Virus record (IMG/VR): IMGVR_UViG_3300032331_003707
Location: 1 to 64,000 of that record
Strand: one strand, 5' to 3'
Source of the DNA: a virus
Length of the DNA stretch: 64,000 nt
Of the stretch, positions 4,095 to 47,826 are shown piece after piece. The translations under genes were made by a program, and so were the position numbers. A model generated the notes under the pieces. The model worked only from the letters and a program-made list of their open reading frames with translations, was not told the DNA's origin and did not search any database. Position 1 is the first letter of the stretch; each line of letters starts with the position of its first letter.

Positions 4095-5402
4095 ATGAAT
4101 AATCCATTATTTTTTATATCATGCCCTATCGATACCTACTCAGGATACGGAGCACGTTCTAGAGATTTAGTTAAAGCAATCATAGAATTAAACAAATACA
4201 ATGTTAAAATCTTACCAGCACAATGGGGAAATACTCCATGGGGATTTATCCAAAATAACCCAGAATGGGAATTTTTAAATAACCATATGTGGACTCACCC
4301 CCAGTTACCAAAACAACCTGAAATTTGGATGCAAATTACCGTACCAAATGAGTTTCAGCCAATTGGTAAGTATAATATTGGAGTAACAGCTGGAATTGAA
4401 ACTACTCTTTCTCCTGGAGATTTTATTGAGGGGGCAAATAGAATGGATCTAACATTAACTTCCTCAGAACATTCTAAATCTACATTTATAAATACTATTT
4501 TACAAAAAGTAGACCAACGTACAAATCAAGTTGTTGGTGAATTAAAAATTGAAAAACCAATTGAAGTATTATTTGAAGGAGCAGACATTAATGTTTATAA
4601 ACCACTTGACAAAGTATCTTTATTTCCTGAATTAAATAATATTAAAGAAGATTTTGCATTTTTATTTGTAGGGCACTGGATGAATGGTGAATTAGGTGAA
4701 GATAGAAAAAATGTTGGTTTATTAATCAAAGCATTTTATGAGATTTTTAAAAATAAAAAAATCAAACCAGCTTTAATATTAAAAACATCTCATGTTGGGT
4801 CTTCATATGTTGATAGAGAAGAAATTCTTAAAAAGATAAAAAGTATCCGTAAATCTGTAAATTCAAAAAATCTACCTAACATTTATCTATTACATGGTGA
4901 AATGTTAGATACAGAAATGAATGAGTTATACAACCATCCTAAAGTAAAGGCAATGGTTAATTTAACTAAAGGTGAAGGATTTGGAAGACCATTACTTGAA
5001 TTTAGTCTAGTTAAAAAACCTATTATAACTACCAACTGGAGTGGACACACAGATTTCCTCAACCCAGAGTTTACAACAATGTTGCCTGGTCAATTAACAA
5101 ACGTTCACCCGAGTGCTGCTAACCAATTCCTACTAAAAGAATCTCAATGGTTTTCAGTAGACCAAGCACAATCTGGAGTTTATATTAATGATATGTTTGA
5201 AAATTATAAAAATTATATTGATGGAGCAAAACGTCAAGCATATAAAAATAAAAATGAGTTTAGTTGGGAAAAGATGAAAGAAAAATTAGACGGGATTTTA
5301 ACCCAATATATTCCTGAGTTTCCAAAACAGGTTCAACTTAAATTACCTAATTTAAAGAAAATAGAATTACCTAAACTTAAAAAAGTAGAAAACAATGATT
5401 GA
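4095..5402 (+). CDS. Glycosyltransferase, GT-B/GT4 family
   Basis: SGYGARSR, DRKNVG, GEGFGRPLLE motif. Confidence 0.85.
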   Translation: MNNPLFFISCPIDTYSGYGARSRDLVKAIIELNKYNVKILPAQWGNTPWGFIQNNPEWEFLNNHMWTHPQLPKQPEIWMQITVPNEFQPIGKYNIGVTAGIETTLSPGDFIEGANRMDLTLTSSEHSKSTFINTILQKVDQRTNQVVGELKIEKPIEVLFEGADINVYKPLDKVSLFPELNNIKEDFAFLFVGHWMNGELGEDRKNVGLLIKAFYEIFKNKKIKPALILKTSHVGSSYVDREEILKKIKSIRKSVNSKNLPNIYLLHGEMLDTEMNELYNHPKVKAMVNLTKGEGFGRPLLEFSLVKKPIITTNWSGHTDFLNPEFTTMLPGQLTNVHPSAANQFLLKESQWFSVDQAQSGVYINDMFENYKNYIDGAKRQAYKNKNEFSWEKMKEKLDGILTQYIPEFPKQVQLKLPNLKKIELPKLKKVENND

Positions 5403-5871
5403 TAATTTAACTATATGCTCTAAATGTGGGTCTAATGCTTGTTATCATACTCAAATTAATACTCCAAACCCTGATAACCCAATAATAAATTCTTATTGGT
5501 GTTATGGGTGTGGGTTTACTTCAAATGATCTTTTAGTTAAAGATTCTGAGTATTATAATGCTCAAACTGAATTATTTCCTGAACTATATAAAGATCTTAT
5601 TTATGAGGATGAGAGTGGGAAATGTTGGATTCCTTCAAGTATAAATGTACCTGAAAAAGGAATGGTTTTTATTAATGGGAATAATTCTAATAACTGGAAA
5701 TGGGCAGGAGTAAAAGCTGTTCCAATACTAGAAAAAGAAAAACACAAATTCCCTATCCCTAAAAAACCAGGAGAATTTTATGAATGGAGAATGGATATGA
5801 GTACACTACAACATTTTGAACCCCAAGATTATATGGAGGCTTTAAGTTATATAGGAGTACTTCCTGAATAA
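5395..5871 (+). CDS. Hypothetical Zn-ribbon protein
   Basis: CSKC and CYGC motifs. Confidence 0.55.
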   Translation: MIDNLTICSKCGSNACYHTQINTPNPDNPIINSYWCYGCGFTSNDLLVKDSEYYNAQTELFPELYKDLIYEDESGKCWIPSSINVPEKGMVFINGNNSNNWKWAGVKAVPILEKEKHKFPIPKKPGEFYEWRMDMSTLQHFEPQDYMEALSYIGVLPE

Positions 5872-5909
5872 AATTTGGGTTTTTAAATTAAAGTTATTAT
5901 ATTCATAGT

Positions 5910-6536
5910 ATGAAAATTAGTTATGCAATTACTGTTTGTAATGAATTAGATGAAGTTAAGCGTTTACTTGATCTTCTTCTTGAAAGCAAACGAGAACAAG
6001 ATGAAATTGTTGTGTTGGTTGATGAACCAAAAGCAGACCAACTTTTATTAATAATGCTTCAAAATTATGAAACACACCATAATAATGTGTGTGTTATTGA
6101 AGATAACTTTAATGATCATTTTGCTGATTGGAAAAATAAACTTACTGCACATTGCAGAGGAGATTATATTTTTCAAATTGATGCTGATGAATTTCCTCAC
6201 CCTTATTTTATAGAAAATTTACCCTCTATTCTAGAACACAACTCAGCAGTTGAATTATATGCTGTACCTAGAATAAACACAGTTGAGGGTTTAACCCAAG
6301 AACATATTCAAAAATGGGGTTGGAAAGTTGATGATAATGGATGGGTAAATTGGCCTGATTTTCAAACAAGAATTTATAAAAACAATCCTGATATTAAATG
6401 GAAAAATAAAGTTCATGAAGTATTAGATGGGCATAAGGAATTTGCTTATTTGCCTATGAGTGAAGAGTATGCTTTATTTCATCCTAAATCAATAAAAAGA
6501 CAAGAAAAACAAAACAATTATTATAATACATTATGA
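5910..6536 (+). CDS. Glycosyltransferase, GT2 family
   Basis: ISYAITVCNE, IFQIDADE, WKNKVHE. Confidence 0.88.
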   Translation: MKISYAITVCNELDEVKRLLDLLLESKREQDEIVVLVDEPKADQLLLIMLQNYETHHNNVCVIEDNFNDHFADWKNKLTAHCRGDYIFQIDADEFPHPYFIENLPSILEHNSAVELYAVPRINTVEGLTQEHIQKWGWKVDDNGWVNWPDFQTRIYKNNPDIKWKNKVHEVLDGHKEFAYLPMSEEYALFHPKSIKRQEKQNNYYNTL

Positions 6537-6937
6537 GTGAAAGAAAGTATCTACCAACATTAAGTGAATTAATTGATCGTTTATCAATTACACAATTAAA
6601 AGAAGTATTCATTACAGACCATAAAGCAGAATATGCTGCTGAGATAGCTGATATAGTACATGATATTCAACTACATTTAAATGAATGTAAAGAACCAATT
6701 ACTGCTGAAACAATTCGTGCTATTGTAGTTTTATCACAAATGAATCTCCATATTTGGCACAATGAATCAAATGTTAGAAGTGGCAAATCAGGCCCAAATG
6801 CTTTAGCTTTAACTCATGGTCTAAATGGTATTCGTAACACAGCTAAAAATCAAATCCAAGAAGTAATGGGTGGTCGTAAAGACTATAAAATTGATTGTTT
6901 AGCAGCTGATTTTAAAGATTGGGAAATATCATGGTAA
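6533..6937 (+). CDS. Hypothetical protein of the sugar locus
   Basis: LSELIDRLSITQLKE...NLHIWHNES helical protein; translationally coupled (ATGA overlap). Confidence 0.55.
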   Translation: MSERKYLPTLSELIDRLSITQLKEVFITDHKAEYAAEIADIVHDIQLHLNECKEPITAETIRAIVVLSQMNLHIWHNESNVRSGKSGPNALALTHGLNGIRNTAKNQIQEVMGGRKDYKIDCLAADFKDWEISW

Positions 6938-7713
6938 AAAAACCAATGAAAGTAGTTATATTAGCTGGAGGATTCGGAACCAGACTATCAGAACATACTG
7001 ATTCTATTCCTAAACCTATGGTAGAAATTGGTGGTAAACCAATTTTATGGCATATAATGAAAATTTATTCTCATTATGGGTATAATGATTTTATTATTTG
7101 TTTAGGATATAAAGGTAATATTATTAAAGAATATTTTCTAAATAAACTAAAATATGACTCAGATGTAACTATTGATTTTACTACTAATGAAATTCAAACC
7201 TATAATCATATTGTTGAACCTTGGAAAGTATCATTAATAGATACTGGAGCAGATTCATTGACTGGTGGAAGGATAAAAAGAATACAACAACATATAGACG
7301 GCCCATTTTTATTAACCTATGGAGATGGAGTATCTGATATTAACATCCCAGAATTAATTAATCATCATAATAAACATAAAAGAAAAGTAACTGTTACAGC
7401 TGTCCAACCAGCAGGAAGATTTGGAGGGTTGGAAATTCAAGATAATGTATTAGTTAAATCATTTGTTGAGAAAAAAAGAAGTGATAGTCCTTGGATTAAT
7501 GGTGGATTTTTTGTTTGTGAGCCTGAAGTTTTTGATTATATTAAAGATGATAATACTATTTTTGAATCTGATGTTCTTGAAAAAATGGCTAGTGAAAACG
7601 AATTAACTAGTTACAAACATGATGGATTCTGGGAATGTATGGATACTATTAAAGATAAAAATAATTTAAATAATTTGTGGAATAATAATAAAGCATTATG
7701 GAAAACATGGTAA
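6931..7713 (+). CDS. rfbF: Glucose-1-phosphate cytidylyltransferase
   Basis: VVILAGGFGTRLSE...PKPMVEIGGKPILWHIMK, TGGRIKR, LTYGDG, GFWECMDT. Confidence 0.93.
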   Translation: MVKKPMKVVILAGGFGTRLSEHTDSIPKPMVEIGGKPILWHIMKIYSHYGYNDFIICLGYKGNIIKEYFLNKLKYDSDVTIDFTTNEIQTYNHIVEPWKVSLIDTGADSLTGGRIKRIQQHIDGPFLLTYGDGVSDINIPELINHHNKHKRKVTVTAVQPAGRFGGLEIQDNVLVKSFVEKKRSDSPWINGGFFVCEPEVFDYIKDDNTIFESDVLEKMASENELTSYKHDGFWECMDTIKDKNNLNNLWNNNKALWKTW

Positions 7714-10101: not shown

Positions 10102-11289
10102 ATGACAATTAACACTTGTGAGGTTTGTGGAAACACAGAGTTAACACCTGTTTTAGATTTAGGAAATCATCCTATATGTGATGACTTAATTAAAATAGGA
10201 GATGAAAGAAAAAATAAAACATATCCTATTCTAATTAAATACTGTGAAAAATGTGGAACAGCCCATCATACTTACCAAATACCTAAACATCAACTTTTCC
10301 CATCTGATTACCACTACAGAGCAAGATTTACAGCTGATGTATTAGATGGAATGAAAAATTTAGTTAATTATTTATCTAAAAATTTTATTAATTTAAAGGA
10401 TAAAAAAGTATTAGATGTAGGATGTAATGATGGAAGTTTATTAGATTTCTTTAGAGAAAAAGGAGCATCTACTTATGGAATTGATCCAACTGATGCCGCT
10501 TATGAAGCTAAAGAAAAAGAACATGATATCATATGTGATTATTTTAGCCCTGAGTTAGTAAAAGATTATACTAAAGTCGATGTTATAACATTTACCAATG
10601 TGTTTGCTCATATTGAAGATTTAAACCACCTACTTAAAGCAGTATCTACAGTATCTAACCCAGATACTTTATTGGTAATTGAAAATCATTACTTAGGTGG
10701 AGTATTACATCAAAATCAATTTGATACCTTCTATCATGAACACCCAAGAACATATAGTCTAAATAGTTTTGTACACATAGCTAAAACATTAGGATTAGAT
10801 ATACTTTCAGTAGAATTTCCATCTCGTTATGGAGGTAATATTAGAGTAGTCATAGGAGATAAAAAATATCATACTCCAATTGAATCAAATATTGATGAGA
10901 TACTAGAAAAAGAAAAACAATTTATTCATAAATTCAATGAAATGAATGAGTTTATTAAAAATTGGTCTCAAACAAAACGAGATGAAATTTTAGAATTCAT
11001 TAAAGAAAATGGAAAAATAGAAGCAAAAGCATTCCCAGCTAGAGCAGCTATTCCATTAACATTATTAGGATTAGATGAAAATCATATTAAATGTGTATAT
11101 GAAAAACCTGGATCATTAAAAATAGGATATTATGTTCCTGGCACTCGTATTCCTATTGTGAGTGATGATGAGATGGGAGATATATCTATTAAAAATGGAT
11201 TATTAAATAATGCATGGCATATATCAACTGAGATTGGAACTTATTTAAGAAAATTAGGCTTTAACGGAGAGATTATTAATATTATATAG
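10102..11289 (+). CDS. NDP-sugar C-methyltransferase (Zn-binding + SAM-dependent)
   Basis: CEVC...CEKC, LDVGCNDG, NVFAHI, FDTFYHEH, YGGNIR, KIGYYVPGTRIPI. Confidence 0.88.
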   Translation: MTINTCEVCGNTELTPVLDLGNHPICDDLIKIGDERKNKTYPILIKYCEKCGTAHHTYQIPKHQLFPSDYHYRARFTADVLDGMKNLVNYLSKNFINLKDKKVLDVGCNDGSLLDFFREKGASTYGIDPTDAAYEAKEKEHDIICDYFSPELVKDYTKVDVITFTNVFAHIEDLNHLLKAVSTVSNPDTLLVIENHYLGGVLHQNQFDTFYHEHPRTYSLNSFVHIAKTLGLDILSVEFPSRYGGNIRVVIGDKKYHTPIESNIDEILEKEKQFIHKFNEMNEFIKNWSQTKRDEILEFIKENGKIEAKAFPARAAIPLTLLGLDENHIKCVYEKPGSLKIGYYVPGTRIPIVSDDEMGDISIKNGLLNNAWHISTEIGTYLRKLGFNGEIINII

Positions 11290-33809: not shown

Positions 33810-34020
33810 AATATATAATTTTCTTAAATAACATTTGGCCTTCGGGTCATTTTTTATTATATTACGGGTATGAATAAAAAACAAGATAGAGAAGAAATTA
33901 TATTTGTTGTATTAGCATTATTAACAACTCTGTGGATGGTTTTTTGCTAAATTACCCCAATTCTTTATCCGAGATTCTGAAATTAGATTTTGTATCTTTA
34001 TAGTATAAGATTTAAAACAT

Positions 34021-35230: not shown

Positions 35231-35494
35231 ATGATGGATCAAATAGGTTATGTCTTATTATACACCATTAATGGATTAGCAATAGCGTTTGTAGTATATA
35301 TTGGGGTTTGGATGCCTAAAGAAAAAATGAAAGGCCACGCCGGTAGAGGTAAATGTAAATGTTGTAATGAGAAAGTAGTATATCATGAAGACGATAATGG
35401 GAATTGGTTCAAAACTACACGTGACAAAGATGGGAACCGAATCTACATGGAAAGTAATGATGGAGTAATTTTTGATAATAGAAAAAATAATTAG
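35231..35494 (+). CDS. Hypothetical membrane protein
   Basis: N-terminal TM. Confidence 0.5.
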   Translation: MMDQIGYVLLYTINGLAIAFVVYIGVWMPKEKMKGHAGRGKCKCCNEKVVYHEDDNGNWFKTTRDKDGNRIYMESNDGVIFDNRKNN

Positions 35495-35753
35495 CCCCGC
35501 TCGCGAGGGGATCGTAAAACACAGTAAGCCTCTGAGATCGTACCAGCTATACTATTATGGTATAGGCGAACCTCAAGTAACTGTTCTCATCGTATAGGAG
35601 ATAGGGTGTTAGTTAGCCTTTTCAAACACCCGACGTCGTATCCAGACTTTAAAAGGCAACTATTAGTGAACTTCGGTACCCATACCGCTGACGATGGGCT
35701 AAGTAAGATACAATTCCGTGCTGCGGGGAGTAGAATGCCGAAGAGCTAATAGT
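35495..35753 (+). ncRNA. Unassigned structured RNA (multi-hairpin with pseudoknot)
   Basis: GC-rich, ORF-free; GGGTGTT/AAACACCC stem whose loop GCCTTTT pairs with AAAAGGC; ACTATTAG/CTAATAGT and CTTCGGT/GCCGAAG long stem. Confidence 0.6.
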
Positions 35754-35758
35754 AACAT

Positions 35759-35858
35759 AGTCAGGTGGTGTAATTGGGTAGCACAACGAAACGGGAGTAA
35801 CCGAAAGGCCAGTACCAATCTACTTGCGTTGATATAGGTTCGAATCCTGTCCTGACTA
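35759..35858 (+). ncRNA. tRNA-like RNA 1 (expanded anticodon arm)
   Basis: AGTCAGG/CCTGACT acceptor, D-arm GTG-TAATTGGGTAG-CAC, T-arm ATAGG-TTCGAAT-CCTGT; ~38-nt insert closed by CAACG/CGTTG. Confidence 0.7.
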
Positions 35859-35873
35859 CAAAATTAAATAGGA

Positions 35874-35978
35874 ATGACACAGGAGGAAATAAAACATTGG
35901 GTCGATAGGTGGTCGAAACTAAAGCCATCTCCTCAAAGAGATATGGTAATTAAGATTTGGTCTAGGTTATTGAAATAA
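35874..35978 (+). CDS. 34-aa ORF between the tRNA-like RNAs
   Basis: MTQEEIKHWVDRWSKLKPSPQRDMVIKIWSRLLK, fills the spacer exactly. Confidence 0.45.
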   Translation: MTQEEIKHWVDRWSKLKPSPQRDMVIKIWSRLLK

Positions 35979-35983
35979 AACAT

Positions 35984-36137
35984 AGTCAGGTGGTGGAATG
36001 GTAGACACATAATGACACGCACGGCAACCTTGAATAAGTGCACTTTGAAAAGGCAATGCGAATGATGAAGAACACTACCTCACAGTGCGTAGGTAAAATT
36101 CAAAGTGTTCATACAGGTTCGATTCCTGTCCTGACTA
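35984..36137 (+). ncRNA. tRNA-like RNA 2 (large insert replacing the anticodon arm)
   Basis: Same AGTCAGG/CCTGACT acceptor, GTGGAATGGTAGACAC D-arm, ACAGG-TTCGATT-CCTGT T-arm; ~100-nt insert with CACTTTGAA/TTCAAAGTG stem. Confidence 0.7.
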
Positions 36138-36196
36138 CTAAAGAGGATAAAACGCGTAGTAACCTCAGGGGTCTGCAGCCCCACTACGCTCCATTA

Positions 36197-36655: not shown

Positions 36656-36722
36656 CTCACTAAAGATATCCCCCAATTCTTTATCCGAGATTATAAAATT
36701 ATCTTTACTATATTTACAGTAT

Positions 36723-45796: not shown

Positions 45797-45966
45797 ACGC
45801 CAACGGTAGAAACAAAACATCCCCAGTTTCTTGCAGTGGGCCCACTGAGACTTTATAAGGATGTACATGGCCTCGACTCTGATCAAGTCGGGGCCTTCTT
45901 GATCCAAATTTTTTATCCGAGATTATAGATTATTTGTTTGTATCTTTATATTAAATAATAAAACAT

Positions 45967-47608: not shown

Positions 47609-47792
47609 GGATTGTTATGCTACCCACACCTAGGGTTAGTGAGTTACTTAAAGAGGTACAGTCTGACGAGGCAGACCATAACAATAATACAATGAGGAAG
47701 GCCCTTAGGCAAGGCTATGTCAACTGGAACGTATGCCGGAAGATGAATAACCACTTACTCATGGGTTCGAACGCGATGCAAAGCGCCCCAGA
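47609..47792 (+). ncRNA. Unassigned structured RNA downstream of tRNA-Leu
   Basis: ATTGTTATG/CATAACAAT closing stem with inner hairpins (GTCTG/CAGAC), ATGAG/CTCAT stem; GC-rich. Confidence 0.45.
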
Positions 47793-47826
47793 GACCCAGA
47801 CCTGATCAGTCTGGGTCTTACCTTTT
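47792..47826 (+). terminator. Intrinsic terminator
   Basis: AGACCCAGAC-CTGATCA-GTCTGGGTCT followed by a T-rich tract. Confidence 0.75.

Follow-up and report, generated by a model that had tools for sequence, protein, structure and literature searches.

Two covariation-supported RNA families, one pseudoknotted with a self-complementary loop, beside the tRNA-like genes of an uncultured lake phage

Structured RNAs other than tRNAs are found among the tRNA genes of several phages. RNA C and RNA D of T4 (species 1 and 2) and the stable RNAs of the T5 tRNA region belong to this group, and they are presumably co-transcribed with the cluster and trimmed by tRNA-processing enzymes. Their function is unknown, and we know of none that has been assigned to a non-tRNA RNA of a phage tRNA cluster since the first T4 and T5 studies. 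Phage tRNA clusters themselves are increasingly viewed as counter-defence loci. In the MALAT1 and MEN-beta RNAs, RNase P cuts at a tRNA-like element (mascRNA in the former) and makes an A-rich structured 3′ end, which is shielded by its structure. The phi29 pRNA is a phage RNA, about 120 nt long, which multimerises through its loops. GOLLD, ROOL and the manA motif are structured RNAs that are linked to phages; their function is unknown, and they assemble into multimers made of RNA alone (10.1101/2024.12.08.627333; 10.64898/2026.07.01.735769). In addition, candidate structured RNAs have been collected from IMG/VR by covariation in the intergenic regions of uncultured viruses, and 8,495 of these candidates are unnamed (PMC10690425). 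Here we describe a phage locus that resembles each of these systems in part.

The locus lies in a 100-kb IMG/VR virus record, which derives from an uncultured lake phage; the first 64,000 nucleotides of this record were analyzed (hereafter, the window). A preliminary description of positions 35495-35753 had proposed a GC-rich, ORF-free stretch that encodes a single pseudoknotted RNA of about 260 nt at the head of a cluster of tRNA-like RNAs. The stretch is indeed GC-rich (0.467, against 0.314 for the whole window). The term ORF-free nearly holds: there are two mechanical ORFs with TTG or GTG starts (41 and 47 amino acids). Despite these ORFs, indels among the homologues and the base-pair covariation described below fit an RNA rather than a coding sequence. 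When the 259 nt were folded alone, the minimum free energy was -70.1 kcal/mol, which corresponds to a z-score of -0.72 against shuffled sequences. Therefore, thermodynamics is uninformative for the window copy, and the structural support comes from the comparison with relatives.

Directly upstream, an 87-amino-acid ORF (35231-35494, + strand) ends in a TAG stop codon (35492-35494), which overlaps the conserved UAGC that opens the RNA motif described below (motif A). Downstream, the tRNA-like RNA 1 (35759-35858, + strand; acceptor halves at 35759 and 35851) starts exactly 5 nt (35754-35758) after the end of the stretch. Its score with the Rfam tRNA model is 24.8 bits, which is under the threshold. 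A second tRNA-shaped RNA follows at 35974-36138; the two have identical acceptor stems and carry long inserts in place of the anticodon arm. Neither was called by ARAGORN, which found only tRNA-Met and tRNA-Leu in the window. Genes of the same type lie 3′ of motif A in 43 other contexts. Copies of a promoter-like phage repeat (TTATCCGAGATT... followed by a TATA-rich box) near 33969 and 36685 bracket the RNA-gene operon, and neither sigma-70-like promoters nor + strand terminators were found between 34873 and 36281. Therefore, a single transcription unit appears to comprise the small ORFs, the stretch, both tRNA-like RNAs and tRNA-Met.

Positions 35489-35753 were compared with Rfam 15. At the gathering thresholds no family matched, including RNase P RNA, SRP RNA, ribozymes, riboswitches, GOLLD, ROOL and Flavo-1. 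At E ≤ 10, the sole look-alike was CRISPR-DR10, in the first hairpin, with 15 bits against a threshold of 39. A tmRNA was not detected at the stretch by ARAGORN. Thus, the earlier statement that the stretch resembles no tmRNA, RNase P RNA, SRP RNA or known ribozyme holds in these searches. As described later, the stretch consists of two modules, and neither was matched by blastn in 50,697 deposited phage genomes. Among 185,579 prokaryote species genomes, the motif A family gave one match only; it lies in a Bacteroidia MAG, on a contig of 81 kb that is probably a binned phage. The phages that carry motif A probably infect Bacteroidota, with Flavobacteriia among the likely hosts.

Relatives were collected in two ways. 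Searches with three flanking proteins (193, 81 and 87 amino acids) gave 92 loci, and the motif was within reach in one phage (L083/L084). In this copy, the 5′ 170 nt are reduced to 117 nt, two blocks of 20-25 nt are identical and one stem is fully exchanged. Four exact-pattern scans were anchored on the P3 loop and the P4 loop (scan 1), the joining strand and the P3 loop (scan 2), the joining strand and the P4 loop (scan 3, in metagenomes), and the inner P2 hairpin and five P3-loop bases (scan 4). Together the scans yielded about 140 true contigs from uncultured phages and lake metagenomes, mostly from freshwater lakes. Merging left 106 distinct motif A cores; because many of the family sequences are close relatives, counts in this family are not independent events. 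A covariance model (R1) was made from an alignment of 52 sequences (A1), and a broader model (R2) was also used. Full-length members match at 72-146 bits and divergent members at 18-49 bits. The window copy of motif A (35489-35659, + strand) matches R1 over all 120 model positions with 95.9 bits (E = 1.5e-22). The comparison shows motif A to be a member of a large, uncatalogued family of predicted phage RNAs.

The family has a common layout. A conserved AGC is followed by the P1 hairpin, a conserved joining strand (J1/2), a variable P2, a P3 with a near-invariant loop that starts AUCGU, and a P4 whose loop is paired with a strand further downstream. In the window, the core of about 115 nt is enlarged by a 30-nt additional P2 hairpin and a longer P4. 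P1 (35495-35510) is the CCCC/GGGG hairpin noticed earlier; it has 4 base pairs, all four of which covary, and an 8-nt loop with a self-complementary hexamer at 35501-35506. J1/2 (35511-35520) is a near-invariant single strand, AUCGUAAAAC, with invariant alignment columns. Its last C (35520) covaries with G35635: this long-range pair is CG in 68 and UA in 6 sequences of a 93-hit alignment, CG in 99 and UA in 6 of the 106 cores, with no exception. P2 (35521-35584) corresponds to the long hairpin of the preliminary description, and its three helices are present (ACAGT at 35521 with ACTGT at 35580, TGAG at 35533 with CTCA at 35572, and CTATAC at 35547 with GTATAG at 35560). All five pairs of the outer stem (35521-35525 with 35580-35584) covary. 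The interior of P2 is variable, ranging from a bare hairpin of 4-5 base pairs (L102, L131) to the 64-nt version of the window; the extra hairpin at 35533-35575 occurs in a minority of members. P3 (35585-35601; stem 35585-35588 with 35598-35601) abuts P2 directly and carries a 9-nt near-invariant loop, AUCGUAUAG, which is 8-9 nt long across the family. In the wider set that includes the divergent members, P3 is 100% paired and its four pairs all covary.

P4 (35604-35631) has 7 base pairs in the window (GGGTGTT at 35604 with AACACCC at 35625) and only 3 in short-form members, in which an A-U to G-C change is seen. Its loop carries the 5′ strand of the pseudoknot (GCCTT, 35616-35620). A conserved linker that begins GACGUCGU and an A-run (together 35632-35657) follow, ending in the 3′ strand (AAGGC, 35653-35657). 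Across the family, the partner is an AAGGC-type strand about 15-30 nt downstream of the P4 loop. This H-type pseudoknot has five pairs, is 98.3% paired, and three of the five pairs change on both sides; its helix was absent from the search model. The pair types observed are GC/AU/GU, CG/AU and CG/UA/UG. Whole-strand exchanges occur as well, in which GAUUU faces AAAUC, AACCUU faces AAGGU or GCUUU faces AAAGC (cases among L168, L173, L176, L179 and L182).

In the 93-hit alignment, 96.2% of the cells are paired, against 35-53% when the partners were slid, and 20 of the 25 pairs change on both sides. It should be mentioned that covariance-model alignments lean towards the nested helices that were modelled; the pseudoknot, the additional long-range pair and the palindrome of the P1 loop lay outside the model. 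In the wider set with divergent members, 95.8% are paired, 17 of 19 pairs covary, and the covariation score increases to 0.67 (slid controls, 0.07-0.11). The G-U pairs of the stems would be A-C mismatches on the opposite strand, and therefore the RNA is read from the + strand. Thus, the collection of homologues and the covariation check that the preliminary description had suggested bear out its structured non-coding RNA, with all helices and the pseudoknot covarying. Motif A also contains about 45 near-invariant unpaired nucleotides, and UCGU lies within three of the invariant unpaired strands; exact-pattern collection partly forces some of these "invariant" columns, and the different anchors relaxed each region in turn.

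Several other pairings and likenesses were considered and rejected. A pairing of the 5′ AGCC with the 3′ strand of the pseudoknot was set aside, because the 5′ end stays constant when the pseudoknot changes (L176, L179). An AAA/UUU pairing between J1/2 and the linker fails because the linker positions vary freely. A double T-loop for the UCGUA words was set aside because of the pyrimidine at position 4. Likenesses in topology to HDV-like, pistol and hatchet ribozymes and to preQ1-I were discarded because Rfam gives no match and the strand order differs.

Divergent members form a subfamily with a different 3′ domain. AGC-P1 and the palindrome in its loop, the joining strand and P3 are all retained, as is P2 including its inner hairpin, and a long plain hairpin stands in place of the pseudoknot domain (L310, L312, L313, L315, L316, L318, which is L245 1501-1626, L319, L320, L321, L322, L323, L324 and L325). 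Another RNA module reuses the P4 loop sequence and the AAGGC strand of motif A with an unrelated 5′ hairpin, and scores 18-21 bits with R1. It is found at L116 522-581 and L157 7173-7239, and right after motif A in L106, L163, L196, L228 and L238.

The described systems nearest in location are the T4 and T5 cluster RNAs. Motif A has in common with them that it lies in a phage tRNA cluster. However, blastn over the 50,697 phage records gave no homology, motif A folds differently, into four hairpins and a pseudoknot and without a tRNA-like end, and it was found only in uncultured phages, which probably infect Bacteroidota. Compared with GOLLD and ROOL, motif A is much smaller; it has no Rfam match to either or to the manA motif, and only a dimer is predicted for it. 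The study of IMG/VR candidates used the same source data and the same kind of evidence, covariation (PMC10690425). Its main text, on which this comparison is based, contains no such motif, and the motif A family could be among its 8,495 unnamed candidates. New here are the full, covariation-backed fold of motif A and the test of its pseudoknot, the palindrome in the P1 loop, the divergent members whose 3′ domain differs, and a distribution that crosses lineages and is independent of proteins.

The stretch had been taken as a single RNA of about 260 nt, and this was not borne out. Motif A takes up the 5′ 171 nt, and the 3′ 94 nt form a separate module. This module B (35660-35753, + strand) was aligned in 21 sequences (alignment A3). 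It is closed by two outer stems, 35660-35668 with 35745-35753 and 35671-35678 with 35736-35743, which contain the CTATTAG/CTAATAG (35660/35746) and CTTCGGT/GCCGAAG (35671/35737) pairings reported before, and has hairpins at 35679-35698 and 35713-35731. Among the relatives it is 97.4% paired, and 10 pairs are changed on both sides. The two hairpin loops are connected by a loop-loop contact (35685-35688 with 35723-35726), the middle pair of which is UA in 13, CG in 6 and AU in 2 sequences. In some phages module B lies 184, 345 or 737 nt from motif A, and in others it follows directly; once it is found between two tRNA-like genes, with its closing stem fully exchanged. Most members of the motif A family have no module B. 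The alignment shows module B to be a second family of predicted RNAs, a three-way junction with a loop-loop contact. In other words, the stretch, on comparative evidence, holds two real and new families of RNA genes. They look like two neighbouring, independent structured small RNAs encoded in a phage operon, which runs from the repeat near 33969 through the small ORFs, these RNAs, the two tRNA-like RNAs and tRNA-Met to the repeat near 36685.

The loop of P1 contains a palindromic word that lies one base off the hairpin centre, and three different hexamers and several tetramers occur at this place. Among distinct P1 loops, 13 of 14 contain a palindrome (34% of random loops do), and 7 of 14 contain a hexamer palindrome (7.6% of random loops). 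Loop positions 14 and 17 have the highest mutual information of any pair in the family (CG 61, GC 41 in the 106 cores). Because these positions are separated by two nucleotides, they cannot pair within one hairpin. When the hexamer is counted as three "pairs", it is 97.6% self-complementary with 40 double changes. Thus, a self-complementary loop word is maintained by covariation, as is required of a kissing loop. Two further palindromes, GUAC and ACGU, come from the divergent members; in one of these members the word is GGCU, whose self-complementarity depends on G-U pairs, and this favours RNA over DNA. The calculated energies of the hexamer duplexes are -5.0 to -9.1 kcal/mol, which makes the pairing feasible but no more. 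The simplest reading is that motif A probably forms a kissing-loop homodimer through P1. A similar design is found in the HIV-1 DIS, where one or two unpaired loop bases precede a six-base self-complementary word and the sequence changes while self-complementarity is kept. The loop of P1 has 8 nt, against 9 in kissing-loop elements, and the dimer of motif A is a prediction. Elsewhere in the window, at 45865-45895 and 47788-47818, there are two 10-bp hairpins with different stems and a 7-nt loop composed of one base and the palindrome TGATCA. These hairpins share the loop design of P1, and self-pairing loops may be a recurring theme in the RNAs of this phage.

We compared the genes around motif A in 114 distinct neighbourhoods. 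On its 3′ side, tRNA-like genes adjoin it in 48 and true tRNAs in about 10 more; module B follows in 18, one of three other recurrent RNA modules in 21, and an ORF directly in about 10. In 54 of 100 contexts, the acceptor stem of a tRNA or tRNA-like gene begins 4-6 nt past the pseudoknot. In these contexts a tRNA-like element lies at a fixed distance downstream, which is the arrangement looked for in an RNA with a 3′ end matured by RNase P; in the window, module B intervenes after motif A. Upstream, tRNA or tRNA-like 3′ ends occur in part of the contexts, and in several loci tRNA 3′ ends are 2-5 nt away. In a complete 173-kb genome (G003), motif A is inside an array of 25 tRNAs (89.5-94.3 kb, L271 9508-14322): at L271 11074-11192 it comes after tRNA-Ser, which ends at 10874, and 4 nt before tRNA-His at 11197. 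In contrast, a complete 120-kb carrier has no tRNA within 40 kb of motif A. Thus, motif A is not always the leader of a tRNA-like cluster as had been proposed. Furthermore, since an ORF follows directly in about 10% of contexts and one genome has no nearby tRNA, processing linked to tRNAs is not universal. The 3′ end of the stretch in the window would likely be set by an RNase P cut at the 5′ end of tRNA-like RNA 1. From the tight spacing and the analogy with the T4/T5 cluster RNAs and MALAT1/mascRNA, we infer that both RNAs are released by tRNA-processing enzymes. The likeness to MALAT1 and MEN-beta is the structured A-rich 3′ end directly upstream of a tRNA-like element. However, those are eukaryotic nuclear long non-coding RNAs with a triple helix, whereas motif A has an H-type pseudoknot, and its cleavage and protection are deduced from the spacing of 4-6 nt. 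Some related phages encode a tmRNA within this array of RNA genes (L069 2597-2962, L070 2607-2963 and L245 2463-2847), and the tags end in AVAA. In L083, from about 1405 onward, an ORF about 300 nt past the tRNA array starts, on a reading of its sequence, like QueC (7-cyano-7-deazaguanine synthase).

This arrangement can also be explained in cis. Motif A might be an end protection or processing element, in which the pseudoknotted 3′ end of the upstream mRNA or array blocks 3′ exonucleases after the RNase P cut, with no function in trans. In 36 of the 114 contexts the motif lies at the end of an ORF with 60 or more open codons, as it does here with the 87-amino-acid ORF, and the pseudoknot with its A-run is placed at the extreme 3′ end, 4-6 nt from the cut site. 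The module at L116 522-581 and L157 7173-7239, which joins the P4/pseudoknot part to a different 5′ part, fits such an element as well. However, the near-invariant unpaired nucleotides, P1-P3 and the self-complementary loop would be superfluous for a simple cap, and in the divergent members P1-P3 are retained and the pseudoknot domain is swapped for a plain hairpin. Moreover, many copies come after a tRNA or non-coding sequence and not after an ORF. We consider this explanation unlikely, and rank it first among the alternatives.

Copies that are followed by an ORF (L117, L132, L144, L166 and L167) have a conserved spacer 3′ of the motif, which includes a UUCG-capped hairpin and a CCUU word. 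It is possible that the CCUU competes with the pseudoknot for its 3′ strand, as an alternative pairing. Such a pairing, found by reading the sequences, would suit a catalytic or ligand-sensing RNA, namely a ribozyme that cleaves itself just 5′ of AGC or a riboswitch-like sensor of the downstream genes. Ribozymes and aptamers typically have a size like that of motif A, a pseudoknot and many invariant nucleotides in their junctions, as it does, and the sequence upstream varies freely while AGC is fixed. Nevertheless, we judge this explanation improbable. No ribozyme or riboswitch model matched at E ≤ 10, most copies precede tRNA-like genes and not ORFs, an extra cleavage would be needless where a tRNA adjoins upstream, and the competing pairing of a sensor comprises only 4-5 nt.

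The distribution of motif A among phage genomes was also compared. Exactly one copy was present in each of six genomes searched, including the 100-kb record. Four complete carriers, which were fetched in full, represent at least three lineages. Across lineages, carriers have only 2-13 of their 200-300 ORF clusters in common, and their motifs are 79-95% identical. Three complete genomes that are close relatives of two carriers lack motif A even when searched with R2. When the four complete carriers were compared with these three complete non-carriers, no ORF cluster was common to all four carriers. Within ±6 kb of the motif there is no constant neighbour gene: none of the three commonest clusters is found in more than 37 of the 90 loci, and neither Pfam nor PHROG gives a function for them. 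These comparisons show that unrelated phage lineages exchange motif A, that close relatives can do without it and that no phage protein co-occurs with it. An RNA of this kind, which is mobile between unrelated phages, independent of phage proteins and open to loss, fits an accessory role that is directed to the host or to counter-defence. Its absence from close relatives also argues against an essential motor role such as that of phi29 pRNA; both are phage RNAs of similar size, but motif A has no link to packaging. In L140, a ribonucleotide reductase gene with an intein containing a LAGLIDADG domain (4882-7236, - strand) is located just upstream of motif A.

A rival explanation is a decoy for a host RNA, with P1 and its AAAAC tail mimicking a CRISPR repeat (an RNA anti-CRISPR) or the repeated U-CGU-A words mimicking an anticodon loop, so that a host nuclease is soaked up. 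The only recurrent likeness in Rfam, to CRISPR-DR10 (15 bits, E 0.6-3.6), comes from P1 with J1/2, and phage RNA anti-CRISPRs, as described in PMC10651486, are solitary repeat mimics; the accessory, horizontally moving distribution suits counter-defence as well. However, a clear likeness to a host CRISPR repeat was not found, because the score is far under the family threshold of 39 and words of the P1 tail gave scattered single matches and no clusters in 401 sampled Bacteroidota genomes, a sample that may not include the true host. The sequence of P1 varies freely, P2-P4 and the pseudoknot are needless for a repeat mimic, and the anticodon idea depends on a 5-nt word alone. We regard mimicry of this kind as very doubtful. 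Finally, a site at the DNA level, where the palindromic hexamer and inverted repeats bind a dimeric protein or serve recombination, deserves hardly any credence: the P1 loop words are perfect DNA palindromes and the element moves between unrelated genomes, but G-U is tolerated in the stems and in the loop word GGCU, covariation reaches the pseudoknot and the long-range pair, which is sensible only for a single strand, the palindrome is one base off the hairpin centre, and the orientation of motif A is always that of the flanking genes.

From these comparisons, we lean, by a little, to the explanation that motif A and module B are accessory small RNAs, which would be cut from the transcript of a tRNA array by tRNA-processing enzymes and would act on a component of the host. 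In the proposed mechanism, host RNase P would cut the polycistronic transcript at the 5′ end of the next tRNA or tRNA-like RNA, and a 3′-processing enzyme would cut after the upstream tRNA. The 3′ end of motif A would be left 4-6 nt past the pseudoknot, and the pseudoknot and the A-run would shield it against 3′ exonucleases. Two copies of motif A would join via the self-complementary P1 loop, and the invariant unpaired strands, three of them with UCGU, might form a surface or pocket for a component common to these hosts. Motif A would then be an accessory RNA for host takeover or counter-defence and not part of the core phage machinery.

A more specific form of this explanation is speculative, and we give it a low probability. 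Here motif A would be a self-dimerising RNA that spreads horizontally among unrelated large Bacteroidota phages and, independently of phage proteins, inhibits a conserved factor of the host or acts as its decoy; a defence nuclease directed at tRNAs and an enzyme of RNA processing are examples of such a factor. Motif A would be one of the cargoes of a wider system in which tRNA-shaped cut marks release many RNAs from a single transcript.

Motif A provides a family of about 115 nt with a covariation-backed fold, a pseudoknot and a testable prediction, the dimer through the palindromic loop, and it is small enough for chemical probing, native gels, cryo-EM and crystallography. Its single copy, its sharing across lineages, its absence from close relatives and the lack of a protein partner together point to a host target. 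The two families also add to the case for a "tRNA-punctuated" RNA operon with interchangeable RNA cargo in large Bacteroidota phages.
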